A DNA stretch of 64,000 bases from an uncultured delta proteobacterium (GTDB lineage: Bacteria > Desulfobacterota > Desulfomonilia > UBA1062): assembly GCA_963752595.1 (NCBI GenBank), contig CAVVYZ010000017.1:160001-224000 (forward strand). The letters run 5' to 3'. The notes under the pieces were generated by a model. That model saw only the letters and a program-made list of their open reading frames with translations, was not told where the DNA came from and did not search any database. The position numbers and the translations under genes were made by a program. Shown here one piece after another: positions 8,790 to 64,000 of this stretch. The first letter of the stretch is position 1. Each line of letters begins with the position of its first letter.

Positions 8790-10534
8790 TTACCCCTGCT
8801 TGTGGATGCCATACTCCTGCAGCTTCCGGTAGAGCGTGGGCCTGCTCATAGAGAGCACGCGGGCTGCCTTGGCTATATTCCAGTCGGTCTGCGTGAGGAT
8901 ATCGAGGATAAGCCCTGCCTCGCTGCCGGAATGCTTTTCTTCGGCTCCCCCCTCTGCGCTAGGCCGAGCATGTATGGTGGGAGGTGCTCCGGCAGGATGA
9001 CGCGGTCGTTGCACAGCACGAACGCATGCTCTATGGCATGCTCCAGCTCCCGAACGTTTCCGGGCCAGGGGTAATTGATGAATATTCTCATCACCTCTTC
9101 GGAGATGCCGCTGATGATCTTCTTGAACGAGCCCTCGAACATGGTGCGGAAGTGATCCACGAGCAGGGGGATGTCCTCGATCCTCTCCCGCATGGGCGGC
9201 AGGTTTATCTCGACCACGTTGAGGCGGTAGTACAGGTCTTCCCTGAACTCACCCCTCTTGACCTTTTCCCTCAGGTCACGGTTCGTGCTGGCTATGACCC
9301 TGGCCTCGGTCTTCCGGGTGGCGGAATCCCCCACACGCTCGTAGGTCTTCGCCTCCAGGACCCTCAGGAGCTTGGCCTGGATGCGCGGCGGGATGTCCCC
9401 GATCTCGTCGAGAAGAATGGTGCCGTCCTTTGCCAGCTCGAACCGGCCCTGCTTGTCCTTGATCGCACCGGTAAACGCCCCCCTGATATGCCCGAAGAGC
9501 TCGCTCTCGAGAAGGCTTTCAGCCAAAGCCGCGCAGTTCACCTTTACAAAGGGCTTGATGGATTTTTTTCCTGAATGATGGAGGGCGTTCGCCACAAGCT
9601 CCTTTCCGGTCCCGCTCTCACCGGTTATGAGGACCGTGGTCTCATGATCCGAGAGGGCCTCGACCAGTTTGAAGATGTTCTGCACGTTTCTGCTTTTCCC
9701 GATGATGTTGTGAAACCTGCTTCTGTCTCTCAGCTCTTCCTCAAGATCGTGAAGCCGGGTGATATCCCTGACCACGAGAACGGCGCCCATGAATGCTCCC
9801 TGGTCGTCCGTCAGTGGTGAGCACGAGAGCAGCACGACCTGCCGGGGCCGGTCATGATGCTCGCACTCCATCCTCAGCTCCCGTATAGGTAGTTTATTTT
9901 TCAGGGTCTCCCTGATCACCTTGGAGCAGTTGTGACTGCACTTTGTGAAACAATCGTCAAACGCCCTTCCTGTAATCTTTCTTATGGACATGCCGCTGAT
10001 GCTCTCGATATGCCTGTTCGCATCGATTACGCGCATGTTCTCGTCAACCGTTATGATCGCGTCGTTCACGCTCTGGAAGATCGCCTCCAGGTTCGTGCGG
10101 TATTTCTCCTTCTCTCTCGTTATCTGCTCTTTCTCATCGAGGAGAGCTTTATGGCTGATGGCCATGGAGGCGGCACGAAGCAGGTCGTTTTTCCGGACAG
10201 GCTTTATCAGAAAATCAAAGGCCCCGCGCCTGAGCGCATCGGTGGCATTATCCAGGGTCGGGTTTCCCGTTATCATGACCACCGGATGCTTCAGATACAG
10301 CGACTTAACCTGTTTGAGCAGGTCCAGGCCCGATTCCCCCCCGAGCACGATGTCGATGAAGATGAGGTCTACCTGGGTGTGGAACAGGATCTTCCGGGCG
10401 CTTTTGAGGTCCGATGCAGTGACTACGTCATACCCTTCTTCCTTCAGGAAGTGGGAGAAGGTGAACCTGATGCTTTCCTCATCGTCAACGACGAGGATCT
10501 TCTTTTTGAGTCTCTTTTTCTCAGGCTCTGACAT
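8790..10534 (-). CDS. sigma54-dependent response regulator (REC-PAS-AAA+-HTH); frameshift near 8950 separates the HTH
   Basis: ILVVDDE, GESGTGKE, GAFTGA, WPGNVREL; HTH WNIAKAARVLSMSRPTLYRKL lies in the adjacent frame. Confidence 0.92.
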
Positions 10535-38807: not shown

Positions 38808-38823
38808 TTCAAAAAGAATGCCA
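38808..38823 (-). promoter_or_regulatory. sigma54-like element for the UPF0182 gene
   Basis: Minus strand TGGCAT-TCTTT-TTGAA. Confidence 0.6.
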
Positions 38824-38923
38824 GGGCTTATCATGGAAAGCCTCGGCAGGGTTCTGATGAAGGTAAACAAACGATATACACCCTTTTTGAGCCCGAGAAG
38901 AGATCTGCAGGGAAAGTCTGCTT

Positions 38924-38963
38924 TGTCCATTTGCATGGGAAAGAAATCCCTTTTCTCCGGACA
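38924..38963. promoter_or_regulatory. Tandem enhancer-like boxes between divergent promoters
   Basis: TGTCC-ATTTGCATG-GGAAA and AATCC-CTTTTCTCC-GGACA. Confidence 0.6.
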
Positions 38964-39043
38964 AGTTTCGAAAAAAAGCCTTTTCGCCCAGGCAATAACC
39001 TTTTTTTTAAGATTCGGCGTAAGCCCATTTTTTTACCGGCCCT

Positions 39044-39059
39044 TGGCATGCTCATTGTA
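39044..39059 (+). promoter_or_regulatory. sigma54-like element for the site-2 protease gene
   Basis: TGGCAT-GCTCA-TTGTA. Confidence 0.6.
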
Positions 39060-40345: not shown

Positions 40346-40384
40346 AATCCCATCTCGTAGGATTATGTCCTGCCCGGCAGGACA
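40346..40384. promoter_or_regulatory. Tandem enhancer-like boxes
   Basis: AATCC-CATCTCGTA-GGATT and TGTCC-TGCCCGGCA-GGACA. Confidence 0.6.
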
Positions 40385-40457
40385 AGGAGGCATATGCCTG
40401 CACGGGCTGTTTATTGCAAGAGACTGAAATGATAGTTGATATATAGTTAGACCCCAG

Positions 40458-40473
40458 TGGCATGCTCTTTGTA
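40458..40473 (+). promoter_or_regulatory. sigma54-like element with no long ORF downstream
   Basis: TGGCAT-GCTCT-TTGTA, 15/16 identical to the element at 39044. Confidence 0.6.
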
Positions 40474-40777
40474 ATAACAAAGAATATTGGAATTTGGAAT
40501 TCTGTAGCAGGGTTGAGTCTTGGTAAGATTGGGGAACGCATATAAGGGGGCAAAGGAAGTTTTTCCTTAAACCTTTTTAATAAAATAAAAACCCCTTGTG
40601 AAATGATTCAGACAACACATTATATAAATTTATACGGCGGCCAGAACACAAAGGAAGATGGTTTGATGCTGATCTACAGAAGAATAGAGGATAGGGCAAA
40701 AGCAGTGAGCACCGCAATCATACTAAACGTTAGGTGTAAGGACAAAGCAGGAATGGACCACGTATGCTCCTCTTAGC

Positions 40778-40825
40778 GGGGGTTGGAGAACCTACCTCAG
40801 CCCCGTTCTCCAGCCCCCTTTTTTT
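40778..40825 (+). terminator. Intrinsic terminator
   Basis: Stem GGGGGTTGGAGAAC / GTTCTCCAGCCCCC (one G-U pair) followed by T7. Confidence 0.85.
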
Positions 40826-41158
40826 CTCTCCTTCTAAGGAGAGAGACGAGCGAGGAGATATTCAATATGCGCACCATGCGAATTATGGGGAATTCGTATG
40901 GTGCTTCTTTCATTACCCGCCTTGATACAGAGACCCCGATAATCCTGCAGAGGACAGTATAACCAGGAACATCCTTTCCATAAGACCGGCACTGCGCCCT
41001 GTTTGAATTCACAATAAAACCAGGTAGTTTGGGATATTTCGAGGAGGCTGTATGAAAGACAACCATTTCATTGGGTATTTACCCCTTTCTTGGGATGGAG
41101 CGTTCTTGGGGAAAGCCCTGCCGAGGTGGTATATACTGTTATGATATAAAGGGGGGTG

Positions 41159-48854: not shown

Positions 48855-49748
48855 TTAAGTTTCCTGCTCCCCTTCCTCGAGGGCATTGAATCCCGAGATG
48901 ATATCAAGCAGTTCCTCGGTAATCGATACCTGCCTCTCCTGATTGTATTGATTTTTCAACTCGGTGAGCCTTTCCTTGATATTCCTTTCCGCTCCCTGCA
49001 TGGATGAGAGCCTTGCTGCGTTCTCGCTTGCCAGGGATTCGGCAAACGCCCTGAAAAGGGATGCGTTGAGATAGTGCCTGACCAGAGCGGAGAAGAGCGT
49101 GTCCGCATCCATGCGGAATACCGGCAGCTCCCTGGTGGGCCAGGGCTCTTCGGTAATGCCTTCCAGCCATTGTCTGTCAAGGGGCAGCAGCCGCATCAGG
49201 CGGGGTTCATACGAGGCCCCGGAGATATGGTGATTGTATTCGAGTAAGACCTGCTGAATCCCGTATTGGCCGTTCCAGTGGTCGATATCACTGATGATCT
49301 CCTGCACGGTCGGGGTAATTCCCTCCGGTGATACCGGCACCGGTAGAAGTTCCTGAATCGGGAGGCCTTCACTCAGAAGTCGGTCATGGATCCTTTGGCC
49401 TACGGACAGGATCAGACAACTCTGCCGGTTTATGCCAGGCCTTTTCATCGTGTCCAGGGTATGGTCTGCGATCCTGTCGTTGAATTGCCCGCACAAGCCC
49501 TGGTCCGACCCGAAAACAAGGAGGACCATGCGGCCGCGGCCCTGCCGCTGATCTTTACCGGGAGGGAGGTACCTGAGCAGGCCGCGGAAAGCAAGCATGA
49601 CCGCCTTGTTGTATTCGTTCAGCGATTCCTGTGCCCTTTCGTATTCGCGGATGTTTACCGCAGCCATAGCTTTCATGGTCTTGACCATGGAGAGGAGGTC
49701 CTGGGCAGTATCATGCTTTTTTTTCAATACCTGGAGATCCGGCATCAT
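48855..49748 (-). CDS. atpG: N-ATPase gamma subunit
   Basis: [29 protein letters not shown]. Confidence 0.93.
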
Positions 49749-51300
49749 CTTTCCTTTTTGCATATGGGTCTGCAGCATCTCTCGCAATCTTCACGAGAGA
49801 CTCCCAATCCTGGTCCGAGAGCTCCTTGTCAGAATCGATCTTGTCACAGATCTCGGGAAGGCGTTCTTTGACCGATGATCTGATGGCTTTTTCCACCTCG
49901 GGGATATCTTCCAGAGGTATTTCGTCGAATACTCCTTTGGTCACGGCAACGAGTACGGTGATCTGCTCACAGGAGTTCATGGTATCGTACTGAGACTGTT
50001 TCAGCGCCTCTCTGACACGGTGGCCTCTCTCAAGGACTTTGCGGGTCTGCTCATCGAGCCTGGTGCCGATCCGGGAAAAGGACTCCAGCTCTTCGAACTG
50101 CGTGTAGGAGAGCCTTAAATCCCCTGCTACCACACGGTAAGCCCTTCGCTGCGCTTTGCCGCCGACCCGGGACACAGATCTGCCTACATCCACCGAAGGG
50201 AGCTGGCCTTTATGGAAGAGCTCGGGTGAGAGGTAGACCTGACCGTCGGTAATAGAAATCAGATTGGTGGGAATGTATGCGGAAATATTCTGGGCCTGGG
50301 TCTCCACGATAGGAAGCGACGTGAGAGACCCTCCGCCGAGTTCTTTGCGCAGGTGGCCGGAGCGTTCGAGCAGGCGCGAGTGGATGTAGAAGATGTCGCC
50401 GGGAAATGCCTCCCTTCCCGGAGGCCGCCTCAGGAGGAGTGAGATCTCGCGGTAGATCCTTGCGTGCCGGGTGAGATCGTCGTAAACGATCAGCACATCC
50501 CGGCCTCGGTCGAGGAAATATTCTCCTACCGTGGTGGCGCTGTACGGAGCCGTGTATTGCAAGCCCGGCGGGTCTTCGCCAACAGCCATCATTACAATCG
50601 TATACTCCATTGCATCCCGTTTCGTGAGCTCGGAGACGACCTTGGCGATAAAACCGCTCTCTTTTCCGATGGCGCAGTAGATACAGATGACATCCCGGCC
50701 CTTTTGATTGATGATGGTGTCTATGGCGATGGCGGTCTTGCCCGTCTGCCGGTCGCCTACAATGAGCTCACGCTGCCCTTTGCCGATAGGGATGAGCGTA
50801 TCGATGACCTTGATACCTGTCTGCATGGGTTCGGTAACCGGGAGACGGTCCATGATGTCGGGGGCCTGCCGCTCGATATAACGGTACTCTGCGGCTGCCA
50901 CGGGGCCTTTGTTGTCACGCGGCCTGCAGACGGCATCCACGACCCTGCCGATCAACGCCTCACCCACCGGCACCTCAAGCACACGGCCGGTTCGGCGAAC
51001 CTCCATGCCCGAGGAAAGCTCACTTCCTTCATCCAGCAGGACTACCCCCACACTGTCGATATGAATGTCGAAAGCTATTCCCAGCCGGTTGCCCGGAAAT
51101 CGCACGAGTTCATCGGCGCGGATTCCGGGGAGCCCGTTTACCCTGGCAATGCCCTGCTCGACCTGTGTTATTATACCGGTCTCCAGGATGGTGAGTTCGG
51201 GACGATAGCTATCCAGTATTCCGCGAGAAAGAGGAGAGGTCATTTCCAAAGCTGTCCATATATCGGCTTCCGGATGAATGGCGCCTTCAACTTCAGTCAT
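49711..51300 (-). CDS. atpA: N-ATPase alpha subunit
   Basis: [20 protein letters not shown]. Confidence 0.95.
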
Positions 51301-52081
51301 GTGCATTCTCCCGGCGCTGGCCGAAGGTATCGATAATGGATCGTGATACCTTCTCCTCGATATCTTCCAGGAACTGATCCGCGTTCCAGCTCACTTTGTA
51401 GCCATCGGCGTTCACTTCTATCCCCAGGATGAGATCGGATGACTGCTGATACCTGACGGAAATATTTTCTGAAAACTCTTTCTTTAACGCTTCTGTCAGC
51501 ATATGACGCAGATTGTCGGCAAGATCGAACGAGCTGGTGACCGTGAGGGCGGTCTCTCTTTTCCGTATAGCATCAGCCAGCTTTTCTTTTCGATCAGGCT
51601 CAACCCCTTTCAATCGCCGGATGAAAACGTCCACAAGTCCCTCTTCCATATCCTTTCCTGCAAGATCACCGATGATGCGATGAGCAATGCGAGTAGAGTC
51701 CTGAATGCTCATGAGCATCAGGCGCTCTGCGATCTCCTTCTTTTTCTGATCAAGGATTTCACGGAGCCGGTAATGTTCTCTCCGGGCATCTTCACGTGCC
51801 TGCACAAGATATTCTTCACGCTTCCGGCTCCCCTCCAGTGCTGCTTCTCTGAGTATCTGCTGCTTCTGCTCGCTCAGCTTGAGATTTTCTTCCCGGTATG
51901 CATCCAGTTCCTGCGCTGCCCGGTCCTGCTTTTCCTTTGCATCGTCGATCTGTGAAGCGATCTGCGCTTTGCGCTCGCGCATGGCGGTCCTGATCCGGCC
52001 GAAGAGGAAAAACTTCAGGAGAGCGACCAGAATCAGAAAATTGACGATTTGAGCGATTATCGTAAACCAGTCGATAATCAA
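51293..52081 (-). CDS. atpF: N-ATPase extended b subunit
   Basis: [14 protein letters not shown], coiled coil, delta-like C-terminus (LILGIE...SWN). Confidence 0.9.
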
Positions 52082-52092
52082 GGCACTTCTCC

Positions 52093-52362
52093 TTAACGGG
52101 ATAGAAAGTGGTTCCAGAACGGGTTGGCAAAGATGAGGATCATGGATACGACGAGGCAGTAAATGGACGTGGACTCTATCATGGCAAGGCCCACGAACAA
52201 TACCCTGCTCAGGGTTCCTGACTCGTCAGGCTGCTGTGCAATGGCAGTCATGGCCTGTGCAACCGCCCTGCCTTCTCCGAGGGCGGTGCCGATCGCCCCC
52301 ATGCCTATGGTAATACCTGATGTAAAAATCGATACGATTCCGATAACGGTAATTGCATCCAT
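52093..52362 (-). CDS. atpE: N-ATPase c subunit with Na+-binding signature
   Basis: LGEG in helix 1 and IESTSIY in helix 2. Confidence 0.93.
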   Translation of the reverse strand: MDAITVIGIVSIFTSGITIGMGAIGTALGEGRAVAQAMTAIAQQPDESGTLSRVLFVGLAMIESTSIYCLVVSMILIFANPFWNHFLSR

Positions 52363-52410
52363 AAACATAGTCTCCTTTTTCCAAGGGATGATAAGGCAGC
52401 TTTTGATTTC

Positions 52411-53121
52411 TCATCTTTGTTGCCTCTGCTCCGTTTCATATTCTGCGTGACTGGCCGAGGTAATGTAGACCATGGACAGCACGGCGAAAATATATGCCTG
52501 GATGAATCCGGTAAGCAGCCCGAGCACGTGCAGGAACACCGGCATGACGAGTGGGATTACGGTCAGCAGGATTGCGGCAATCTTTGTCTCTGACATGATG
52601 TTGCCGAAAAGTCTTACGGCAAGGGCCAGGATTCGCGTAATTTCACTGATGATATTGAAAGGCAGCATGAAGACCGAGGGCGTGGAGAAGGTTTTCAGGT
52701 AGGCAAGGAGGCCGCCGCTTCCGATCCCGTACAACGGAACAGCGACAAAGACGCAGGCGGCCAATGCCGTAGTGGTTGCAAGGGATCCCGTCGGGGGAAC
52801 GTATCCCGGAACGGTCATAAGCAGGTTCGACAGCGCGATGAAGAGAAAGAGCGCCCCGATGAATGAAAGGTATTTCTCGGCCTTTTCATGTGATATTTCC
52901 TCGATCTGGGACGAAAGGATATCCACTATGGATTCTACAAAATTCTGCCAGGAGCCGATCTCTTTTCCCACCGAAAGGCGTCGGGTGGCGAGCAGCGAAA
53001 TGATCACCAGTATCCCCATGGTGATCCAGGTGTAGAGGATCGTAGCATTGAACTTCAGCCATCCCATCTGCCAGAAGATGACGGCATCCGGTGTTATCTC
53101 GCTGATAGTCATGATATCCAT
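52411..53121 (-). CDS. atpB: N-ATPase a subunit
   Basis: LAVRLFGNI, IQAYIF. Confidence 0.93.
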   Translation of the reverse strand: MDIMTISEITPDAVIFWQMGWLKFNATILYTWITMGILVIISLLATRRLSVGKEIGSWQNFVESIVDILSSQIEEISHEKAEKYLSFIGALFLFIALSNLLMTVPGYVPPTGSLATTTALAACVFVAVPLYGIGSGGLLAYLKTFSTPSVFMLPFNIISEITRILALAVRLFGNIMSETKIAAILLTVIPLVMPVFLHVLGLLTGFIQAYIFAVLSMVYITSASHAEYETEQRQQR

Positions 53122-53423
53122 CGCGCCCCCCCGATATCTCCTTTCCTGCTTATCTTTGAAGGGGTTATGAAAAACAGAAGCAGTTGCCTTGCAATGAAAA
53201 AGCCTGTGATGCACGCGATGTATCCGGTCAGCCGGCCTTGGGAGACCAGGAAAAAAAGGACCAGAACGATACCGGCACGCACAACGAAACTGCCTATGAG
53301 GAAAAGGCCGGGTCTCTGCTTCGAACGTATACGCCTGACGGTGAGCATAAGACCCATAAAATAGCCGAATCCGGCTCCGACTCCTGTCAGGAATACGAGA
53401 AAGAGCGGTAAAGAATCATGCAT
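53109..53423 (-). CDS. atpR: N-ATPase AtpR
   Basis: YFMGL..TV, SFVVR, GFFIAR; position in atpDCQRBEFAG. Confidence 0.8.
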   Translation of the reverse strand: MHDSLPLFLVFLTGVGAGFGYFMGLMLTVRRIRSKQRPGLFLIGSFVVRAGIVLVLFFLVSQGRLTGYIACITGFFIARQLLLFFITPSKISRKGDIGGARWIS

Positions 53424-53441
53424 AATCTATAGCGTTCCTTT

Positions 53442-53760
53442 CTATGCATCTCTTTTTGCTTTCCTGATCTTAAGCATTGCTTTCACCCAGAACCACGCGT
53501 TCAGGCAGCCGAGAGTAAGCCCGATAAAGAGCATCGTCAGGGTCCATGAATGCGTACCGGGCACCTTGGCATCCATCCATGTTCCGAGCGCGATCCCCAG
53601 GAGGGTTGGGATGGCGATTGACCATCCCACAAGCCCGATCATCCCCAAACCGTATATCAGGGTGATCTTACCGGCGCGTTCGGCTTTTTCCCGCCGTATC
53701 TTTTTGGTGTTAATCTGTCTGATGAACCCCTTTTCTCTCTTCTCCTTTTTTTCCTGGAAA

Positions 53761-53768
<8 letters not shown>
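53442..53768 (-). CDS. atpQ: N-ATPase AtpQ (AtpI/AtpZ-like)
   Basis: GMIGLVGWSIAIP, GCLNAW; operon position. Confidence 0.82.
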
Positions 53769-55588
<1,820 letters not shown>

Positions 55589-56559: not shown

Positions 56560-57327
56560 TTACTGCCCGGCCAGTCGGCAGGTTTTATCGCCGTTTCCTC
56601 CAGATCTCAAGTCGTCTGAGCTCATGATGGCAATATCCTGGTCCTGCAGGAATTGCTTCATCTTCTGGAGCGATCTTACCTGGAGCTGTCTTACCCGCTC
56701 CTGGCTCAAACCAAGCTGCGAACCGATTTCCATGAGGGTAACAGGCGGGTCCGAATAGAACCGTTTCAGAATGATGAACAACTCCCTCCGTGTCAGCATC
56801 GTAAAGCCCTGCTGAAAGAGAAAAGATACCTGACGGGATATTTCTCTGCCGGAGTAGAGCGATTCCAGATCGAAATCATCAGTCAGATAATCCACCCAGC
56901 GATCAGTTTCGCTGGGATCGCCTGCTATGGTCTCATCAAGAGAAAGGAGATCTTTTGTATGTCGTAAGGTCCCCGTCCGGATCTTACTGCTTTTGCGGAT
57001 AAAATCCTTTATGGATGCCTCGATCCACCAAACGGCATAATAAATGAAGTGTACTCCGCGATCGGGATCGAACCGGGTAAGGGCTTTCATGAGGCCCAAG
57101 TTGCCTTCCTGGACGATCTCAAGGTAATTATGGCCGCTATTGAAATACTTCTGGCTTACCTTTACAACGAACCTCAAGTTTGCATGGATTATCTTTTGGC
57201 CAGCATGCACGTCACCCTGCTGGTACTGTTTCGCAAGTTTATACTCCTCTTCTGGCGTTAAGAGAGGGTATCTTCTTATTTTTCTTAAATACAGCTGTAA
57301 TTCTGAATAATCATGTCTGTTTGCCAT
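56560..57327 (-). CDS. RpoH-like sigma70-family factor with shortened region 3
   Basis: LYL..IRRYPLLTPEEE, ANLRFVV, QEGNLGLMKA..RFDPDRG, YAVWWI, LSQERVRQLQ. Confidence 0.9.
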   Translation of the reverse strand: MANRHDYSELQLYLRKIRRYPLLTPEEEYKLAKQYQQGDVHAGQKIIHANLRFVVKVSQKYFNSGHNYLEIVQEGNLGLMKALTRFDPDRGVHFIYYAVWWIEASIKDFIRKSSKIRTGTLRHTKDLLSLDETIAGDPSETDRWVDYLTDDFDLESLYSGREISRQVSFLFQQGFTMLTRRELFIILKRFYSDPPVTLMEIGSQLGLSQERVRQLQVRSLQKMKQFLQDQDIAIMSSDDLRSGGNGDKTCRLAGQ

Positions 57328-59133
57328 ATATATTTACCTTTCCTGAAAGTAGCTTCACGGATTCTATGAGTTCTTCTGGTTGATGACTTTTACCATTTGC
57401 CTTATATCGCCTAATTGTTCGCCGGCCGGGGATAACCGTCTCGATGAGATGGGCTGTCTCCGGGTATGTCTCTTTTAATGCTTTCTCTATATGCTCAGCG
57501 GTGACCAGACGGGATTCTGAATAATCCTGTCCCTGCTCGATTACGTGTAACAGCTTCATGAGGTGCTTCTCGAAGTCACCCTTCAAGAACTGTGGATGAC
57601 TGCAGAGAGAAAGGATCGCGTGCCGTGCGGATATGTGGAAAAACTTCTTGCTGTTGAGCGTTCGTATTTTATCAAAGGACGGCTCTTTCGGTATCCTGCC
57701 GACTGCAAGTTCCTCCTTGTTGCATGGGCGTCCGACGAGATAGGGAAAGTCCGGGTCTACAAAAGAGAGAATGGAATATTCGCACGCACTGCCGGTTATT
57801 ATGATGGTTGTATTGAGGGGGGTTGCCCCGGATCCGGGCTTCCGGAAGCGAATGTGCCTCCATGCGGAACAGCATGGGTGAAGTTGAGTTCTTTTTGGGA
57901 GATACTACTTTTCAATAACTCCCAGAGATGGAACTGTCGCAGTATCCAGGATGCCTCCAGTATCAGGATCCCCCCATTGGCTTCATGCAGGGCACCGGCT
58001 TTTGCCATGGTAAAGTCTACCCGAGAAAGGGGAAGGGCCTTGGGAGACGAAGTACTGCAGCGTCCGAATAAGTCCTCGAACCCTGCATCCCTGGCAAAGA
58101 CCAGTGGACGGTGCCTCTTGTTTGCCCTGCTCACCAGGACATTTACCGTATAGGGTGAATACAGGCCTTCGCGGGAGGTACCCGCCTTGACTTCCAAGGG
58201 GGCGGGAAGAGAAGTTCCCTCTGCCGGCAAAGTGAAGATCTGGAGATTCCTAAGGATATCTTCCTCCACGTCCTCAAGATAAACGAGTATCCTCGGCATC
58301 TTGCGGTACTTTTTCCTGAGTCTGGCCATGAGAGGGGAAACCCCTTCCCTTGCCTTATCCTTGGTGAATGCATCGAGCTCTTCAGTGCACTTCTTCTTGA
58401 GCGACCTGATCCGGTCGCGGATGAGGCGGTAATCTACGGGTTGAGGCTGGTCGAAAATTGCAACAGCGCTGTTGGCTGCCGGTGTCCTTCCTATTCCGGA
58501 AAACGCTACAACCGGCTCGGTATAACTCTCCGCAATGGGGGCTTTCGATACCTCCCTTGTAATCCTATTATAGTTATAGAGAGATCCTCTGCTGAGGCTC
58601 TGGTAGAGAGGCCGGACAGCGGCCTGTTCCTGCTGGTCATAGCTCAGCATCAACATGTGAACCTTTTTCTGGAAATGATCCGAAAGCAGGATGTTTCGGA
58701 GTCGTTGCCGTGCTTCATCGATGAAGTGCTCCATCTCAGAAAGGAACCGGGGGCCTTCCCCTGCAGGAAGGGCAATGACCCTTGGCCGCGACTCTACCTG
58801 GAAGTTATGGACACAGCACCAATCGCAGGGTTCCGGAAGTGTCCTTCCAAGGAACTTTAAACCGTCGATGAACTCCCTGATGTAGGGAAGATGCTCTTTT
58901 TGAGAGAGGAGAAACAGGAAATCCGCTTCCTTTTCAAAGAGCTTAGTCCATTTCTGAGTAAAAAATTGAAGCGGGTATTGCGCTAATTTTCCGAAAATAT
59001 TGTATATTATTCCTGACAATTTATTCTTTCCCCTTATATATACTTGACTTGCGCCGAGCTGCTTTGCCTTTGCTTCCGGGCGCGGAGGATGATGGCTTGG
59101 ACCATGATAAACCTCCTTCTGCCGCGGAATCAT
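57311..59133 (-). CDS. LonC/LonB-like AAA-region protein lacking the protease domain; frameshift near 57825 (true start possibly 59105)
   Basis: DWCCVHNF, LPAGEG, YTVNVLV, KAGALHEANGGILIL; after the shift PLNTTIIITG..Y..DPDF...VTAEHIEKAL; ends overlapping the sigma gene start. Confidence 0.72.
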
Positions 59134-59194
59134 TTTCCGCGTCCCAACGGATTTCGAGAAGGCTTCATGGAGCATGACCGTCTCAATGGTCAAA

Positions 59195-59461
59195 TCAGTC
59201 GAATAATTCAGGGAAACTTTCCCTGACGTCACGAGGGTGCTTGAATTTGATCCGACCATGTAAAAACATGCTGGAGATCTTTTTGGCGATAAGCCTGTCC
59301 TGCGCCGGAATGGATTTCTCTTGGACAGATCGGGAAAAGCGAAAGCCTGAAGTATTGTCGATGCTCTCGCTGATAGCCTCCATGAGGTCATAGAGGGTGG
59401 TGGTGATTTCTACTGTTTTGCTCCTCGATCCTAATGAACTATAACCACTATGTATGCTCAT
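59195..59461 (-). CDS. Small hypothetical protein (88 aa), first gene of the sigma operon
   Basis: SD AGGAGG; TTLYDLMEAI...GRIKF. Confidence 0.7.
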   Translation of the reverse strand: MSIHSGYSSLGSRSKTVEITTTLYDLMEAISESIDNTSGFRFSRSVQEKSIPAQDRLIAKKISSMFLHGRIKFKHPRDVRESFPELFD

Positions 59462-59545
59462 AGTAAATCCTCCTATGGTCTCTGTTGATGTTCCGGGCAT
59501 TCATCTTTTTGTTCATGATGAAACCCATGCGTCACATCCTCTTTA

Positions 59546-59561
59546 TTCAAATGCTGTGCCG
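59546..59561 (-). promoter_or_regulatory. sigma54-like element for the small protein-LonC-like-sigma operon
   Basis: Minus strand CGGCAC-AGCAT-TTGAA. Confidence 0.55.
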
Positions 59562-59646
59562 ACATTGTGGAATAGAAATAAATCATACAAATCCAAAGAG
59601 ATAAAAAAGGAAGCTCTGAAATACAGATCTCCCACACACTGATTGC

Positions 59647-59684
59647 TGTCCTGTGAAGCGGGATAAGTCCTCTCTGATGAGAAT
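59647..59684. promoter_or_regulatory. Tandem enhancer-like boxes
   Basis: TGTCC-TGTGAAGCG-GGATA and AGTCC-TCTCTGATG-AGAAT. Confidence 0.55.
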
Positions 59685-59958
59685 CTCACTCGTGGTGATG
59701 CAAATTTGGCCCAATTCCCGACATGTTAGGCATATTGATCATGCATGTCTTTTTCTCATGTCTTTGTAATTATTAGATGCATCCGTTCTACCATCCGGCA
59801 TTTTGAAAACCGGTTCCTGTCTGAAGATTTTTAGAAATTATCAGTGTCGGTAGTAAAATAATGAGTGTGCGAACAATTACCGGTCAGTCCCAGGATACCC
59901 TCTCTTCAATGATTTTTTAAACCGGTTTTATTATTCCTGTGGTTCAGGGCAGCGCGGG

Positions 59959-60201
59959 TTACATGTGCCTTGAGAGATCATGTTTATGGAGCAGAGCATA
60001 CAATCTGGACCGGGACAGACCGGATATCCTGCATGCATTCGATACATCACCAGAGGTACATTTCATGAGTTCCATGAGATAAAAACGCTCCACCTCTGTA
60101 ATATACCGGCTACGGATCGGACGCAGCCGGGGAAGGTCGGGTGATGGCGACCGATTTACCTTTGTGAGGATCTGATTGAATGACGGCTTACGAATGTCCA
60201 T
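59959..60201 (-). CDS. Stand-alone Fis-type HTH protein matching the C-terminus of the adjacent activator
   Basis: 80 aa; shares ACRISGLSRSRLYALL exactly with 60468-61871. Confidence 0.75.
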   Translation of the reverse strand: MDIRKPSFNQILTKVNRSPSPDLPRLRPIRSRYITEVERFYLMELMKCTSGDVSNACRISGLSRSRLYALLHKHDLSRHM

Positions 60202-60214
60202 ACATCACAGCTAT

Positions 60215-60230
60215 AACAAGGTATATGCCA
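60215..60230 (-). promoter_or_regulatory. sigma54-like element for the HTH-only gene
   Basis: Minus strand TGGCAT-ATACC-TTGTT. Confidence 0.55.
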
Positions 60231-60467
60231 ACAGCATCATACCGAACGAAAAAAGATCAATTAATATAATTATATCAAATGGATAGAAGCATTAAAACTC
60301 TTCCGGAAGCATACAAAAATATGTGATGCCCGCTGTGCACTTTTCCTGTTTGCGAATACGAAAAGCAAAGGAGTTTCTTGATCAAGCAATGTTCTGCGGG
60401 CAAAACATCCCTGTTTCGGAAATCCTGTTTTTTAATAATAGGGTAATCTGGTCAGGAAACGGGAGGA

Positions 60468-61871
60468 TCAGGAGATCTCGTACCTTTTCAGCAGAGCATA
60501 AAGCCGCGAGCGGGAGAGTCCGGAAATCCTGCAAGCTGTCTTGATGTCGGACTTTGTCTGGCGCAGGAGCTCCTTGAGGTACTGCTCCTCGATCTCGCTC
60601 ACTGCCTCTTCCCGTACATCCTTGAGGTTGGGCAAACTGTTGTCTCCTGAAACTTTCAGGGTTTCGGGGTTAAGCTGCTTTTTGGCAGCGGCATTCCGCT
60701 TTACCTGGACATGGATGTGGTAGGGAAGGTGTTTCGGTACGAGGATCGGGCTGTCATGGGCTACGGCCAATGCGCTCTCAAGGGCATGGATGATCTCCCG
60801 GACGTTGCCGGGCCATGAGTACTGCAGAAGGATGTCGCGGAAGGCCGCACTGACTCGTTTCGGCTTTATCCCGTATTTTTTGCTGTGCCGCTTGAGATAA
60901 TGGTTGGTCAGCTCCTGGATGTCCTCGGGACGCTCTCTTAAAGGAGGCAGGTCGATACTGATGGACCTGAGCCTGAAGAGGAGATCCTTCCTGAACCTCT
61001 TGCTCTGCACCAGATCATTCAGATCACGATTCGTGGCGCAAATAACCCGGAAATCGCTTTCCACCTCGCTCGATTTACCGATGGGCCGGAAGCGTCCTTC
61101 CTGCAGGACGCGCAGGAATTTTTTCTGGATGGAAAGGGGAAGCTCTCCCACTTCATCCAGGAACAGGGTTCCCTTATGGGCCTGGCTTACCAAGCCGGGT
61201 TGGGCTTTATCGGCACCTGTATACGAGCCTTTCTCGTACCCGAAAAGAATGCTTTCCACGAGGTTGGGAGGGAGCGCGGCGCAGTCGACAACCACAAAAT
61301 CGTTCCCTGCCCGGAGCGAGTGATTGTGGATTGCCCGGGCAAAAAGCTCTTTGCCGGTGCCTGTCTCGCCGGTAATCAGGACACTCGCATCATTGGAAAG
61401 CGTCTTGCTCAAGAGCGTAAGGCATTTCTTCATCCCGGAGCTGTGCCCGAGAATCCCTTCCTTCTCGAAATCCAGTACCGTTTGGGGCAGGGTGTTGCTT
61501 TCGTGGTAGAGGATCGCATCTTTGAGAAGCTGCGTCAGATCATTCTTGGAAAAAGGCTTTTCTATATAATCCCATGCACCCCGGGAAAGTGCAAGTTCCA
61601 CAGACTCAGGATCGCCGTAGGCGGTTATGACGATTACCTCGGGGGATCCGCTGTTCCGGCAGACTTGAGGAAGAATATCGATGCCGTTTCCGTCCGGCAT
61701 GCGGACGTCAAGGAAGACGACATCATAGGCATCTGCCCGAACCGCATCGAGGCCCTCCTCGAGGGTAAAGGCCTGATTGCTGTTATATCCCAGGATGCGG
61801 GATACATTTGCAATAGAGCTGCAAACAAGCCTGTCATCATCGATTACGAGGATTTTTTTACGTTCTTCCAT
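60468..61871 (-). CDS. NtrC-family sigma54-dependent response regulator
   Basis: ILVIDDD, LDVRMPDG, GETGTGKE, GSYTGA loop variant, WPGNVRE, C-terminal HTH. Confidence 0.94.
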   Translation of the reverse strand: MEERKKILVIDDDRLVCSSIANVSRILGYNSNQAFTLEEGLDAVRADAYDVVFLDVRMPDGNGIDILPQVCRNSGSPEVIVITAYGDPESVELALSRGAWDYIEKPFSKNDLTQLLKDAILYHESNTLPQTVLDFEKEGILGHSSGMKKCLTLLSKTLSNDASVLITGETGTGKELFARAIHNHSLRAGNDFVVVDCAALPPNLVESILFGYEKGSYTGADKAQPGLVSQAHKGTLFLDEVGELPLSIQKKFLRVLQEGRFRPIGKSSEVESDFRVICATNRDLNDLVQSKRFRKDLLFRLRSISIDLPPLRERPEDIQELTNHYLKRHSKKYGIKPKRVSAAFRDILLQYSWPGNVREIIHALESALAVAHDSPILVPKHLPYHIHVQVKRNAAAKKQLNPETLKVSGDNSLPNLKDVREEAVSEIEEQYLKELLRQTKSDIKTACRISGLSRSRLYALLKRYEIS

Positions 61872-61893: not shown

Positions 61894-64000
61894 TTATTGA
61901 AATGTAAAGCTTTCTCGGTTGAGCGCCCGGGCAATGGTTTCAGCCAGAAGGGATGTGGAAAAGGGCTTGGAAAGATAGGCAAAAAAACGGGCAGGACGAG
62001 ACTCAAGCTCCTGTAATGCCTCTTCCGATCCGGAACAGATAATGACGGGAAGGTCCTTACGGACCTCGATCATTTTCGAGGCCATTTCGTCGCCTTTTAT
62101 GACCGGCATGATCTGGTCTGTGATGAGCAGATCGAATGCCTCAGGTGTCTTCTGGAAAAGATCGAGGGCCTTGAGCGAGTCGTTCGTCGATGCGACGCGG
62201 TAACCCATCCGCACGAGCATATGGTGGATGCTGCGCAGCTCCATGGCATTGTCATCGACCAGGAGAACCCTTCCCTTGCGGTCTCCTCCGGGGTGGAGTA
62301 TTTCCGATGTGCGTTCACCCGAAGACTCTTCCCTCTCCCCGAGATGCTTCGGAAGGTATACCTCGAAGGATGATCCCTTCCGGGGCTTGCTGTGGACGAT
62401 GATGGAGCCTCCTGCATTCTTGACTACCGCGTGAACGACACCGAGGCCTAAGCCCGATCCCTTGCCGGACTTCTTGGTGGTGAAGAGCGGATCAAAGATC
62501 TGCTCCATGACTTCTGTGGTCATGCCGGAACCGGTATCTTTGATGGTGAGCTTCAGGTACTCCCCGGGACCCAGGATGGAAACTGATGCAGGGGTGGCGG
62601 TATGGATTTCGGTTTCCTCGAGCCTTACTGTAAGAGTGCCCTGTCCCTCTTCCATGGCCTGTACCGCATTCATGCAGAGATTGGTGAGGAGCTGGTAAAA
62701 CTGGGGCGGGTCGGTCCTCACAAGACCCTTGGTTGAGGCGATCTTCTGCCTAAGCGTGATGCGGGGAGGGAGGGATTGGCCGATGATCCTCAAGGCGTCC
62801 CGTACGACAGGTTCTATGGCAACGGGCTTGAAGAGCAACTTTTTTTTGACCCCGAACATTTTGATCTGGTTCGTGATATCCTTCCCGATCCGTGCCGCCT
62901 CGATTATCTGGTTGAGGTACTCCCGTTCAGGGGCATTCTGGGGAAGCGTATCAGCCACAAGCTCTGCATTGATGAGGATGGGTTGGAGGATATTGATGAA
63001 ATCATGGGCGATGCCTCCTGCAAGCATGCCGAGTGCCTCCATCCTTCTTTTGCGCTCAAGGGCATTCTGCAGGGCCCTTTCATCCGTAACATCGTGTTCG
63101 ATGATCGTATAATTCGTAATCTGTCCTCCATCATCGCCTATGGGAGAGATGATGATGTCCAGTTCACGCTTTGAGCCGTCATGACTCGTCCTCTTGATAA
63201 AGCCCCTCCATGGTTTGTCCCCGATCTCTTTTAAGGAGACTACGCCTTCGGGTGCATCATCAGGGGAGGCATGCTTTTCATATGGTTTGCCCGAAAGTTC
63301 TTTGCGGGCGATTCCAAGTGATCGTTCCGCCGCCGTGTTAAGGTACTGGATCATCCCTTTTGAATCGAGGATGAAAATACTCTCGGTGGAGTTTTCAATG
63401 GCTGATATGAGGAGCTTTTTTTCCTGTTCGGTTTTCCGGTAATCGGTAATGTCTACGGATATGCCTCCGATGAGCTTCGGGAAGGTATTCCCGAGGATGG
63501 GAAACTTCTGGGTGAAAAAAGAGAGGCGTCGACCTCTGGCGGAAAATTCTTCAACCCTCTGCAGGTCTTTCCCTGTGGTCAGAACTTCCCTGTCGTCTTC
63601 GTGAATAACCTGTGCAATCTCACCGGACCAGAGGTCGCCGGCGGTTTTGCCGATGCACTCACTGACTGTTACCCCATAAATGTCTTCTATGTAATGATTA
63701 AGGTACAGAAACCGGCCCTGCTCATCCTTGAGATAGACCATTCCCGGAAAATGATCCATGAAGAGGGAAAACTGTTCCTCGCTTTGCCTCAAATCTTCTT
63801 CCAGGCGTTTGCGCTCATCAATCTCAAGCTTCAGGCGCCGGTTGGTCCTCAGGAGCTGGGCGGTACGGCGCCGGACTTCCCGTTCCAGTGTCAGGTGGGC
63901 ATCCTGAAGCACGGCTTCGGCTTCATGTTTCAAAATCAAGTCTTTATGCCGCTGAATAGCATTGCCCAGCACCACGGGGAGCAAATCCGGATATGCATCG
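61894..64000 (-). CDS. Hybrid PAS sensor histidine kinase with C-terminal receiver; 5' end outside the window
   Basis: Two PAS domains, GGIAHDF H-box, NAVQA, DTGSGM, GSGLGL, VLLVDD...TDQIMP. Confidence 0.92.
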   Translation of the reverse strand, partial: DAYPDLLPVVLGNAIQRHKDLILKHEAEAVLQDAHLTLEREVRRRTAQLLRTNRRLKLEIDERKRLEEDLRQSEEQFSLFMDHFPGMVYLKDEQGRFLYLNHYIEDIYGVTVSECIGKTAGDLWSGEIAQVIHEDDREVLTTGKDLQRVEEFSARGRRLSFFTQKFPILGNTFPKLIGGISVDITDYRKTEQEKKLLISAIENSTESIFILDSKGMIQYLNTAAERSLGIARKELSGKPYEKHASPDDAPEGVVSLKEIGDKPWRGFIKRTSHDGSKRELDIIISPIGDDGGQITNYTIIEHDVTDERALQNALERKRRMEALGMLAGGIAHDFINILQPILINAELVADTLPQNAPEREYLNQIIEAARIGKDITNQIKMFGVKKKLLFKPVAIEPVVRDALRIIGQSLPPRITLRQKIASTKGLVRTDPPQFYQLLTNLCMNAVQAMEEGQGTLTVRLEETEIHTATPASVSILGPGEYLKLTIKDTGSGMTTEVMEQIFDPLFTTKKSGKGSGLGLGVVHAVVKNAGGSIIVHSKPRKGSSFEVYLPKHLGEREESSGERTSEILHPGGDRKGRVLLVDDNAMELRSIHHMLVRMGYRVASTNDSLKALDLFQKTPEAFDLLITDQIMPVIKGDEMASKMIEVRKDLPVIICSGSEEALQELESRPARFFAYLSKPFSTSLLAETIARALNRESFTFQ

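Follow-up and report, generated by a model that had tools for sequence, protein, structure and literature searches.

The HTH-only gene that follows an NtrC-type activator gene in the window (the whole stretch of 64,000 nucleotides that was analysed) probably encodes a competitor of that activator. On comparative sequence evidence, the small protein would be induced by the activator and would give negative feedback through enhancer boxes that the two share. Sigma54 systems are usually tuned through the sensor domain of the activator or through anti-activators that bind it; if the reading is true, a dedicated paralogue that only binds DNA, and is a target in its own right, would act at a different point of control. 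The features on which the argument draws are listed here.

59959..60201, minus strand: HTH-only, Fis-like gene of 80 aa, predicted helices at residues 8-14, 23-48, 53-60 and 64-73
60216..60230, minus strand: sigma54-type -24/-12 element of the small gene, predicted +1 near 60204, no Shine-Dalgarno
60468..61871, minus strand: NtrC-type activator with receiver, AAA+ domain with GSYTGA loop and SRSRLY-type HTH
61894..64000, minus strand: PAS-PAS hybrid histidine kinase directly upstream of the activator, continuing beyond the window end
59935..59949: single TCCTG-N5-CAGGA box with 1 mismatch just 3' of the small gene stop, candidate downstream enhancer
59649..59682: box pair (59649-59663 and 59668-59682), about 100 nt upstream of the next sigma54-type promoter
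59547..59561, minus strand: sigma54-type promoter of a cassette of a 101-aa gene, a LonC-like gene and an RpoH-like sigma factor gene
38809..39058: box pair 38926/38947 flanked by divergent sigma54-type promoters (38823 minus, 39044 plus), likely the same regulon
40348..40472, plus strand: the genome's best-scoring box pair (40348/40368) and a sigma54-type promoter (40458), likely the same regulon

The small gene and the neighbouring activator

An earlier note, made from the sequence of the window, had likened the 80-aa protein to the C-terminal 55 aa of the activator and had found neither a receiver nor an AAA+ domain in it. Both points hold: residues 23-77 align with activator residues 413-467 at 52.7% identity, and Pfam finds the Fis-type HTH_8 only. 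This HTH_8 match (PF02954) scores 20.7 bits (E 3e-4; the gathering threshold is 22 bits), and a precomputed HTH_8 match exists for 9 of 13 close homologues. The ORF lacks the AAA+ domain with GAFTGA-type loop that defines membership of the bEBPs. Remnants of such a domain, which the note had named as the sign of a truncated paralogue, are absent both from the 270-nt gap between activator and small gene and from residues 1-21. Derivation of residues 1-21 from the activator's post-lid helix was considered and rejected (hhalign with 61 full-length activators: a probability of 0.7%, and at a different place).

The 16-residue HTH core is identical in the small protein and the activator, with 9 of its 16 codons synonymously different, exactly as had been noted. 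Within the assembly, which is 84% complete, the 80-aa protein matches the neighbouring activator alone, and this neighbour is the sole activator with an SRSRLY-type HTH. Across same-genus genomes (n=11) 0-3 residue changes and 7-11 synonymous codon differences separate the core from that of the local activator, which argues against recent gene conversion. The recognition helix of the SRSRLY-type activator subfamily, LSRSRLY.LL, is present identically in the window's small protein, and S63, S65, L67, Y68, L70 and L71 are invariant among 25 aligned small proteins. The caution that this HTH might be common to a wider subfamily proved apt: among the matches listed by a homologue search that favours 16-mer-like matches, 49 of 120 activator homologues have the identical 16-mer, 45 have one difference and 26 have two. 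The description of the small protein as a twin of its neighbour therefore stands as regards specificity within its own genome, but not as proven ancestry, the 16-mer being a subfamily trait. In domain trees the small proteins form one clade (SH-aLRT 100; 92 in a second tree). Duplication from the neighbour is neither supported nor rejected (p-AU 0.47) by these quick trees of 55-56 columns, on which the sister group of the clade is not settled; the small domain has on average 55% identity to cognate activators and up to 61% to other activators. Tandem position suggests descent from the neighbouring activator. A search of the ESM Atlas returned generic HTH_8 clusters only.

The AlphaFold monomer of the small protein (mean pLDDT 82) contains the four helices listed above, the first at low confidence (pLDDT 63-70), while residues 31-70 reach pLDDT 91-96. 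The B-C-D bundle superposes on 3e7l, 1fip and 1etq with an rmsd of 0.8-1.2 A over 46-49 columns. Fis gives the best PDB matches, followed by the ZraR, NtrC4 and NtrC1 domains, with weak E-values throughout (Foldseek E to Fis 0.19 or above). As modelled, the small protein resembles Fis; it has one additional helix at the N-terminus and shows no remnant of an AAA+ domain. In the model of the activator, a disordered linker (401-413) precedes the matching long helix. According to a preprint (10.1101/2023.05.30.542961), bEBP DNA-binding domains with helix A dimerise stably and those without it do not.

The small gene, which belongs to anaerobic deltaproteobacteria, occurs in 15 genomes from three genera of one family and encodes exactly 80 aa in each. 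Of the 11 other genomes of the same genus, 10 have it directly after the activator, and a profile search of 52 genomes of the order adds four members from two further genera (G050, G062, G065 and G060; 44-53% identity). The search for stand-alone homologues proposed in the earlier note places the gene directly after the activator in 14 of 15 genomes; in G060 it does not adjoin the activator, and a search of that assembly (71% complete) found no cognate one. A scan of about half of a metagenome collection added two distant loci, L138 and L142; four further matches duplicated known proteins and were left out of the count. Purifying selection rather than decay, as the note had proposed, is borne out in the 11 same-genus genomes by a median pairwise dN/dS of 0.089 (55 pairs, some of them saturated), a pooled pN/pS of 0.20 and the lack of indels. 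By part, dN/dS is 0.035 for the HTH core and 0.23 for the N-terminus. Some distant members have an altered recognition helix (R64L in P0143; R66Q in G060 and P0145).

Some genomes do without the gene. In G009 it is gone, but a broken trace of its promoter remains together with the box pair and the target promoter; an unrelated ORF with a signal-peptide-like start occupies its place after the activator stop (L031). In G020 a start-less remnant lies right after the activator, followed by a box pair and promoter (L032, C36:150275-150379). The activator was found without a small gene in the fetched stretch in G022, G048, G053, G054, G058, G059, G061, G063 and G064. Short-frame stand-alone HTHs were sought in 401 genomes of the phylum, and the 7 examined among the matches listed (G116 and G322 being left out) were 4 frameshifted activators, 1 contig end, 1 start-less remnant and 1 real gene. 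Several activators of the source assembly itself are frameshifted from their own HTH (8873-10534; contigs C5, C9, C14 and C22), which suggests indel errors in the assembly.

Promoter, enhancer boxes and regulon

The earlier note's sigma54-like element was recovered as TGGCATATACCTTGT at 60230-60216, with a start near 60204 and the ATG at +4; here +1 is taken to be the 12th base after the -12, the canonical sigma54 spacing. Its -12 dinucleotide is GT, not GC. In 15 of 15 genomes the pattern TGGCAY-N5-TTG(T/C) lies just 5' of the start codon, which it places at +2 to +6; L138 and L142 have the same layout (ATG at +3), so that the element is present at 17 of 17 loci. The pattern occurs 86 times in 8.2 Mb of strand sequence, or about 8e-5 per 8-nt register, and its presence in register in all 15 genomes is therefore not chance. 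The intergenic remainder (44-398 nt) has diverged in the 11 same-genus genomes compared, and in G001 and G062 only 12-20 nt separate the activator stop from the sigma54 element. Pairing to the anti-Shine-Dalgarno is weak or absent in the 15 genomes (best -3.7 kcal/mol), which suggests that translation is tied to the sigma54 transcript. With a conserved -24/-12 element, rpoN found in the genome and a box in reach downstream, the small gene has the features of a sigma54-dependent gene with a predicted start. A scan of the minus strand over 59400-60600 found nothing like a terminator, so read-through from the activator is possible. Neither a box nor a sigma54 element was found in the 700 nt before the activator in 11 genomes.

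Footprinting gives TCCTG-N5-CAGGA as the consensus of the candidate box. The earlier note was right that no box is conserved upstream of the small gene and that the nearest pair is 59649/59668, but it missed the nearer single box at 59935-59949, which begins 9-10 nt beyond the stop and is conserved. In 13 of 15 genomes a post-stop box of at least 10 bits lies within 43 nt of the stop, compared with a 99th percentile of 8.1 bits for background 30-nt windows (the matrix was trained without post-stop sites); G004 has no post-stop box and G050 has one only at +69. A single box stands 8-10 nt past the stop in 10 of 11 same-genus genomes. At loci from other genera and metagenomes the box or pair 3' of the stop is the target promoter's own enhancer, and pairs follow the small gene at both metagenome loci. 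The box start lies 100-104 nt before the sigma54-type promoter in 14 of 14 loci scored, with or without a small gene. In a scan of the genome the two best pairs near a sigma54 element are both within the window (40347 and 59648). Two other arrangements were rejected: an upstream enhancer for the small gene, which reaches a score of 12 or more in just 2 of the 15 genomes and in differing places, and a terminator function for the post-stop palindrome, given the terminator result above and a 5-nt spacer that varies freely. A review (PMC7408454) allows bEBP sites up to 1.5 kb downstream of the start, and the post-stop boxes are thus likely to be the enhancer of the small gene's promoter. Judged by its position, the activator would drive this promoter.

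That the small protein shares the activator's boxes, as the earlier note had supposed, is made likely by covariation of helix and box. The 500 nt past the stop were searched in 40 activators (L093-L132; full-length, the best 40 of about 140 phylum matches), with a background box rate of about 3% per 500 nt. Those with Ser at the S65 position (n=17) have 7 TCCTG, 0 TCTTG and 10 without a box; those with Pro or Ala (n=16) have 12 TCTTG-N5-CAAGA (11 perfect), 0 TCCTG, 1 tie and 3 without; other residues (n=7) go with 2 TCCTG, 1 tie and 4 without. The Fisher p of 2e-5 for the association is overstated, because kin activators are not independent. A further 18 loci gave 6 TCCTG, 3 ties and 9 without a box, and 65 Ser-type activator tails from metagenomes gave 27 TCCTG, 5 TCTTG, 10 ties and 23 without, so the code is a preference, not a rule. 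Ser65 is invariant in 25 of 25 aligned small proteins, which supports a specificity shared with the activator. The one-residue code (Ser with TCCTG-N5-CAGGA, Pro/Ala with TCTTG-N5-CAAGA) is testable and would serve a widespread activator subfamily of the Desulfobacterota, and its boxes are located just downstream of the activator genes (L093-L132).

Likely targets are the cassette of the 101-aa, LonC-like and RpoH-like sigma genes, a UPF0182-like gene (a match to NCBIfam PRK00068 under the cut-off, for which we take UPF0182 to be the family name) and an M50-CBS peptidase gene, presumably of M50 by its motif. In relatives the M50-peptidase gene has a promoter upstream at 12 of 12 loci and an upstream box of at least 7 bits at 11 of 12, the window's own pair, at less than 7 bits, being the exception. 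The target genes sit in a cluster with an alternate F1F0 ATPase, a TreT-like glycosyltransferase, Fpg and PolX, a content that suggests a stress response. The 101-aa gene (59195-59500) is the first after the box-bearing promoter and has a strong Shine-Dalgarno, a conserved N-terminal VEITTTL(Y/F)(D/E)LME motif and no Pfam or NCBIfam match. Only pieces of AAA and helical domains are recognizable in the LonC-like gene (56560-59391), which is variable or missing in relatives; the RpoH-like sigma factor after it is highly conserved (85-98%). Downstream of the sigma gene lies the alternate F1F0 ATPase operon (48855-55585), which we take to be N-ATPase-type. The promoter with the genome's best box pair is followed by about 700 nt (40458-41150) without a clear long ORF; its product is possibly a non-coding RNA or small proteins. 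The five regulon promoters (38823, 39044, 40458, 59561 and 60230) have TTGT or TTGA at -12, not TTGC, and this is conserved in relatives.

Proposed function and alternatives

A protein without an AAA+ domain cannot itself open a sigma54 promoter. In the circuit that we propose, the kinase would control the activator, which through the boxes would serve the sigma54 promoters, that of the small gene included. Phosphorylated activator at the post-stop box or boxes, about 285-320 bp from the -24, would drive the small gene's promoter. The ORF has no Shine-Dalgarno and would be translated mainly from the near-leaderless transcript and not from read-through of the activator operon, so that synthesis of the small protein would be tied to activator activity. 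Its N-terminal helix, predicted to correspond to 'helix A' of Fis/NtrC, would give a stand-alone dimer. The protein lacks receiver and AAA+ domains and would be unable to activate; judging by the covariation it would read the activator's box, and the dimer would occupy the boxes and damp its own promoter and others, including that of the RpoH-like sigma cassette. The outcome would be negative feedback or adaptation. Relatives without the small gene keep the box-promoter layout, so the gene is not needed for activation and would be a modulator. Against a brake, a near-leaderless mRNA may yield little protein.

An architectural role is unlikely, though it has more in its favour than the other alternatives. 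Here a dimer like Fis or IHF would bend the DNA at the post-stop box and help pair-bound activator to reach the promoter, giving positive feedback. The predicted Fis-like fold would suit this, as would, in 9 of the 11 same-genus genomes, the position of the single box about midway, 286-290 bp from the -24 and about 286-293 bp from the pair's proximal box; an IHF consensus is matched in this stretch in only 2 of 11 genomes, and Fis is described as cooperating with LuxO and sigma54 at Qrr promoters (PMC11407668). However, the midpoint layout is missing in G001, G004, the other genera and the metagenome loci, the post-stop boxes in these other genera and metagenome loci are the enhancer of the target promoter, and the layout is kept in relatives without the small gene. 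A protein with the activator's specificity would, moreover, compete for the pair too.

Two further readings are each improbable, to about the same degree. The small protein might pair through helix B with the C-terminal domain of the activator in inactive mixed dimers. Helix B has a mean net charge of +2.2 in the small proteins and -2.4 in the cognate activators, with fixed swaps between them (A33Y, E32R, E39R and Q40F), but a stronger homodimer would account just as well for the added Tyr and Phe and the new helix, and the intact recognition helix and strong selection point to DNA binding. Alternatively, the protein could be a downstream regulator that relays the signal to targets of its own (single boxes, sigma70-type promoters) without acting as a brake. 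The genome has, as a raw count, 323 single boxes of at least 11 bits, and the recognition helix varies in distant members and in a second HTH-only gene; yet conserved non-sigma54 targets were not identified, and shared specificity would still bring competition. That the gene is a functionless, decaying fragment of a duplicated activator, as the start-less remnant in G020 and the gene loss and broken promoter trace in G009 might suggest, is very improbable and largely refuted by a dN/dS far below 1, the fixed length, and a non-homologous N-terminus and promoter conserved across three genera.

Returning to the activator-induced competitor, a broader form of this reading is more tentative: a Fis-like protein would have arisen from a sigma54 activator for a second time, independently, and would be wired as an inducible repressor. 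Its gene would lie between its own sigma54 promoter and the driving enhancer and would yield mRNA only when the activator fires; the protein would then shut the enhancers and turn a stress signal into a pulse. HTH-only offshoots of the activator subfamily recur, which would point to a general layer of sigma54 control that has been overlooked. The second HTH-only gene, of separate origin, encodes 67 aa with an SRPRLY (Pro-type) helix and is found in all three genomes of one genus from another family (L059:4343-4546 in G234, L074 in G456 and L075 in G455), not beside an activator. It has a sigma70-like promoter and a Shine-Dalgarno, and about 61 nt beyond its stop stands the matching TCTTG-N5-CAAGA box. 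As the host lineage of the 80-aa gene is represented here by metagenome-assembled genomes, direct genetics is limited, but the circuit could be rebuilt in E. coli.

Comparison with known systems

In open-access literature, with subscription papers largely missing from the search, no HTH-only competitor of a sigma54 activator was found, and the available part of PMC10162802 holds no competition data. The C-terminal domains of NtrC4, NtrC1 and ZraR (PDB 4fth, 3e7l, 4l5e and 1ojl) have the same B-C-D bundle; these domains, like those of DVU3220-like Desulfobacterota activators, are parts of full activators, whereas the small protein is stand-alone. DVU3220 carries a GSFTGA loop, and its HTH, with ISGLSRS, is related (PMC4641369, table 1 and supplement). 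In the available part of Kazakov et al. 2015 (PMC4641369) this D. vulgaris member appears without a motif, and no stand-alone partner of it is mentioned there.

The small protein resembles Fis of E. coli (PDB 3iv5 and 1ety; HTH_8) in being a small stand-alone four-helix DNA-binding protein of the Fis/NtrC type. Fis is an abundant nucleoid protein. Unlike Fis, to which its identity in structural alignments is only 22-28%, the small protein comes from another activator subfamily, keeps a sequence-specific recognition helix, has a sigma54-type promoter beside its cognate activator and is narrowly distributed. Whole-length orthology to Fis was not found: the match is limited to residues 54-96 at an E of 0.004 or weaker, and the NCBIfam Fis model gave no match to the small protein at E up to 1e-5.

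MerD against MerR, Cro against CI, and ICER against CREM/CREB are activation-less competitors that are induced by the activator they oppose. By analogy, the small protein is proposed here to be a related DNA-binding protein that would damp a response on a common operator; the folds and polymerases of the three known systems are unrelated, and none of them is a sigma54 enhancer system. The origin of Fis from an NtrC DNA-binding domain was put forward by Morett and Bork 1998 (as cited in PMC11407668), and the small protein, if the reading is true, would be a living model of that origin.
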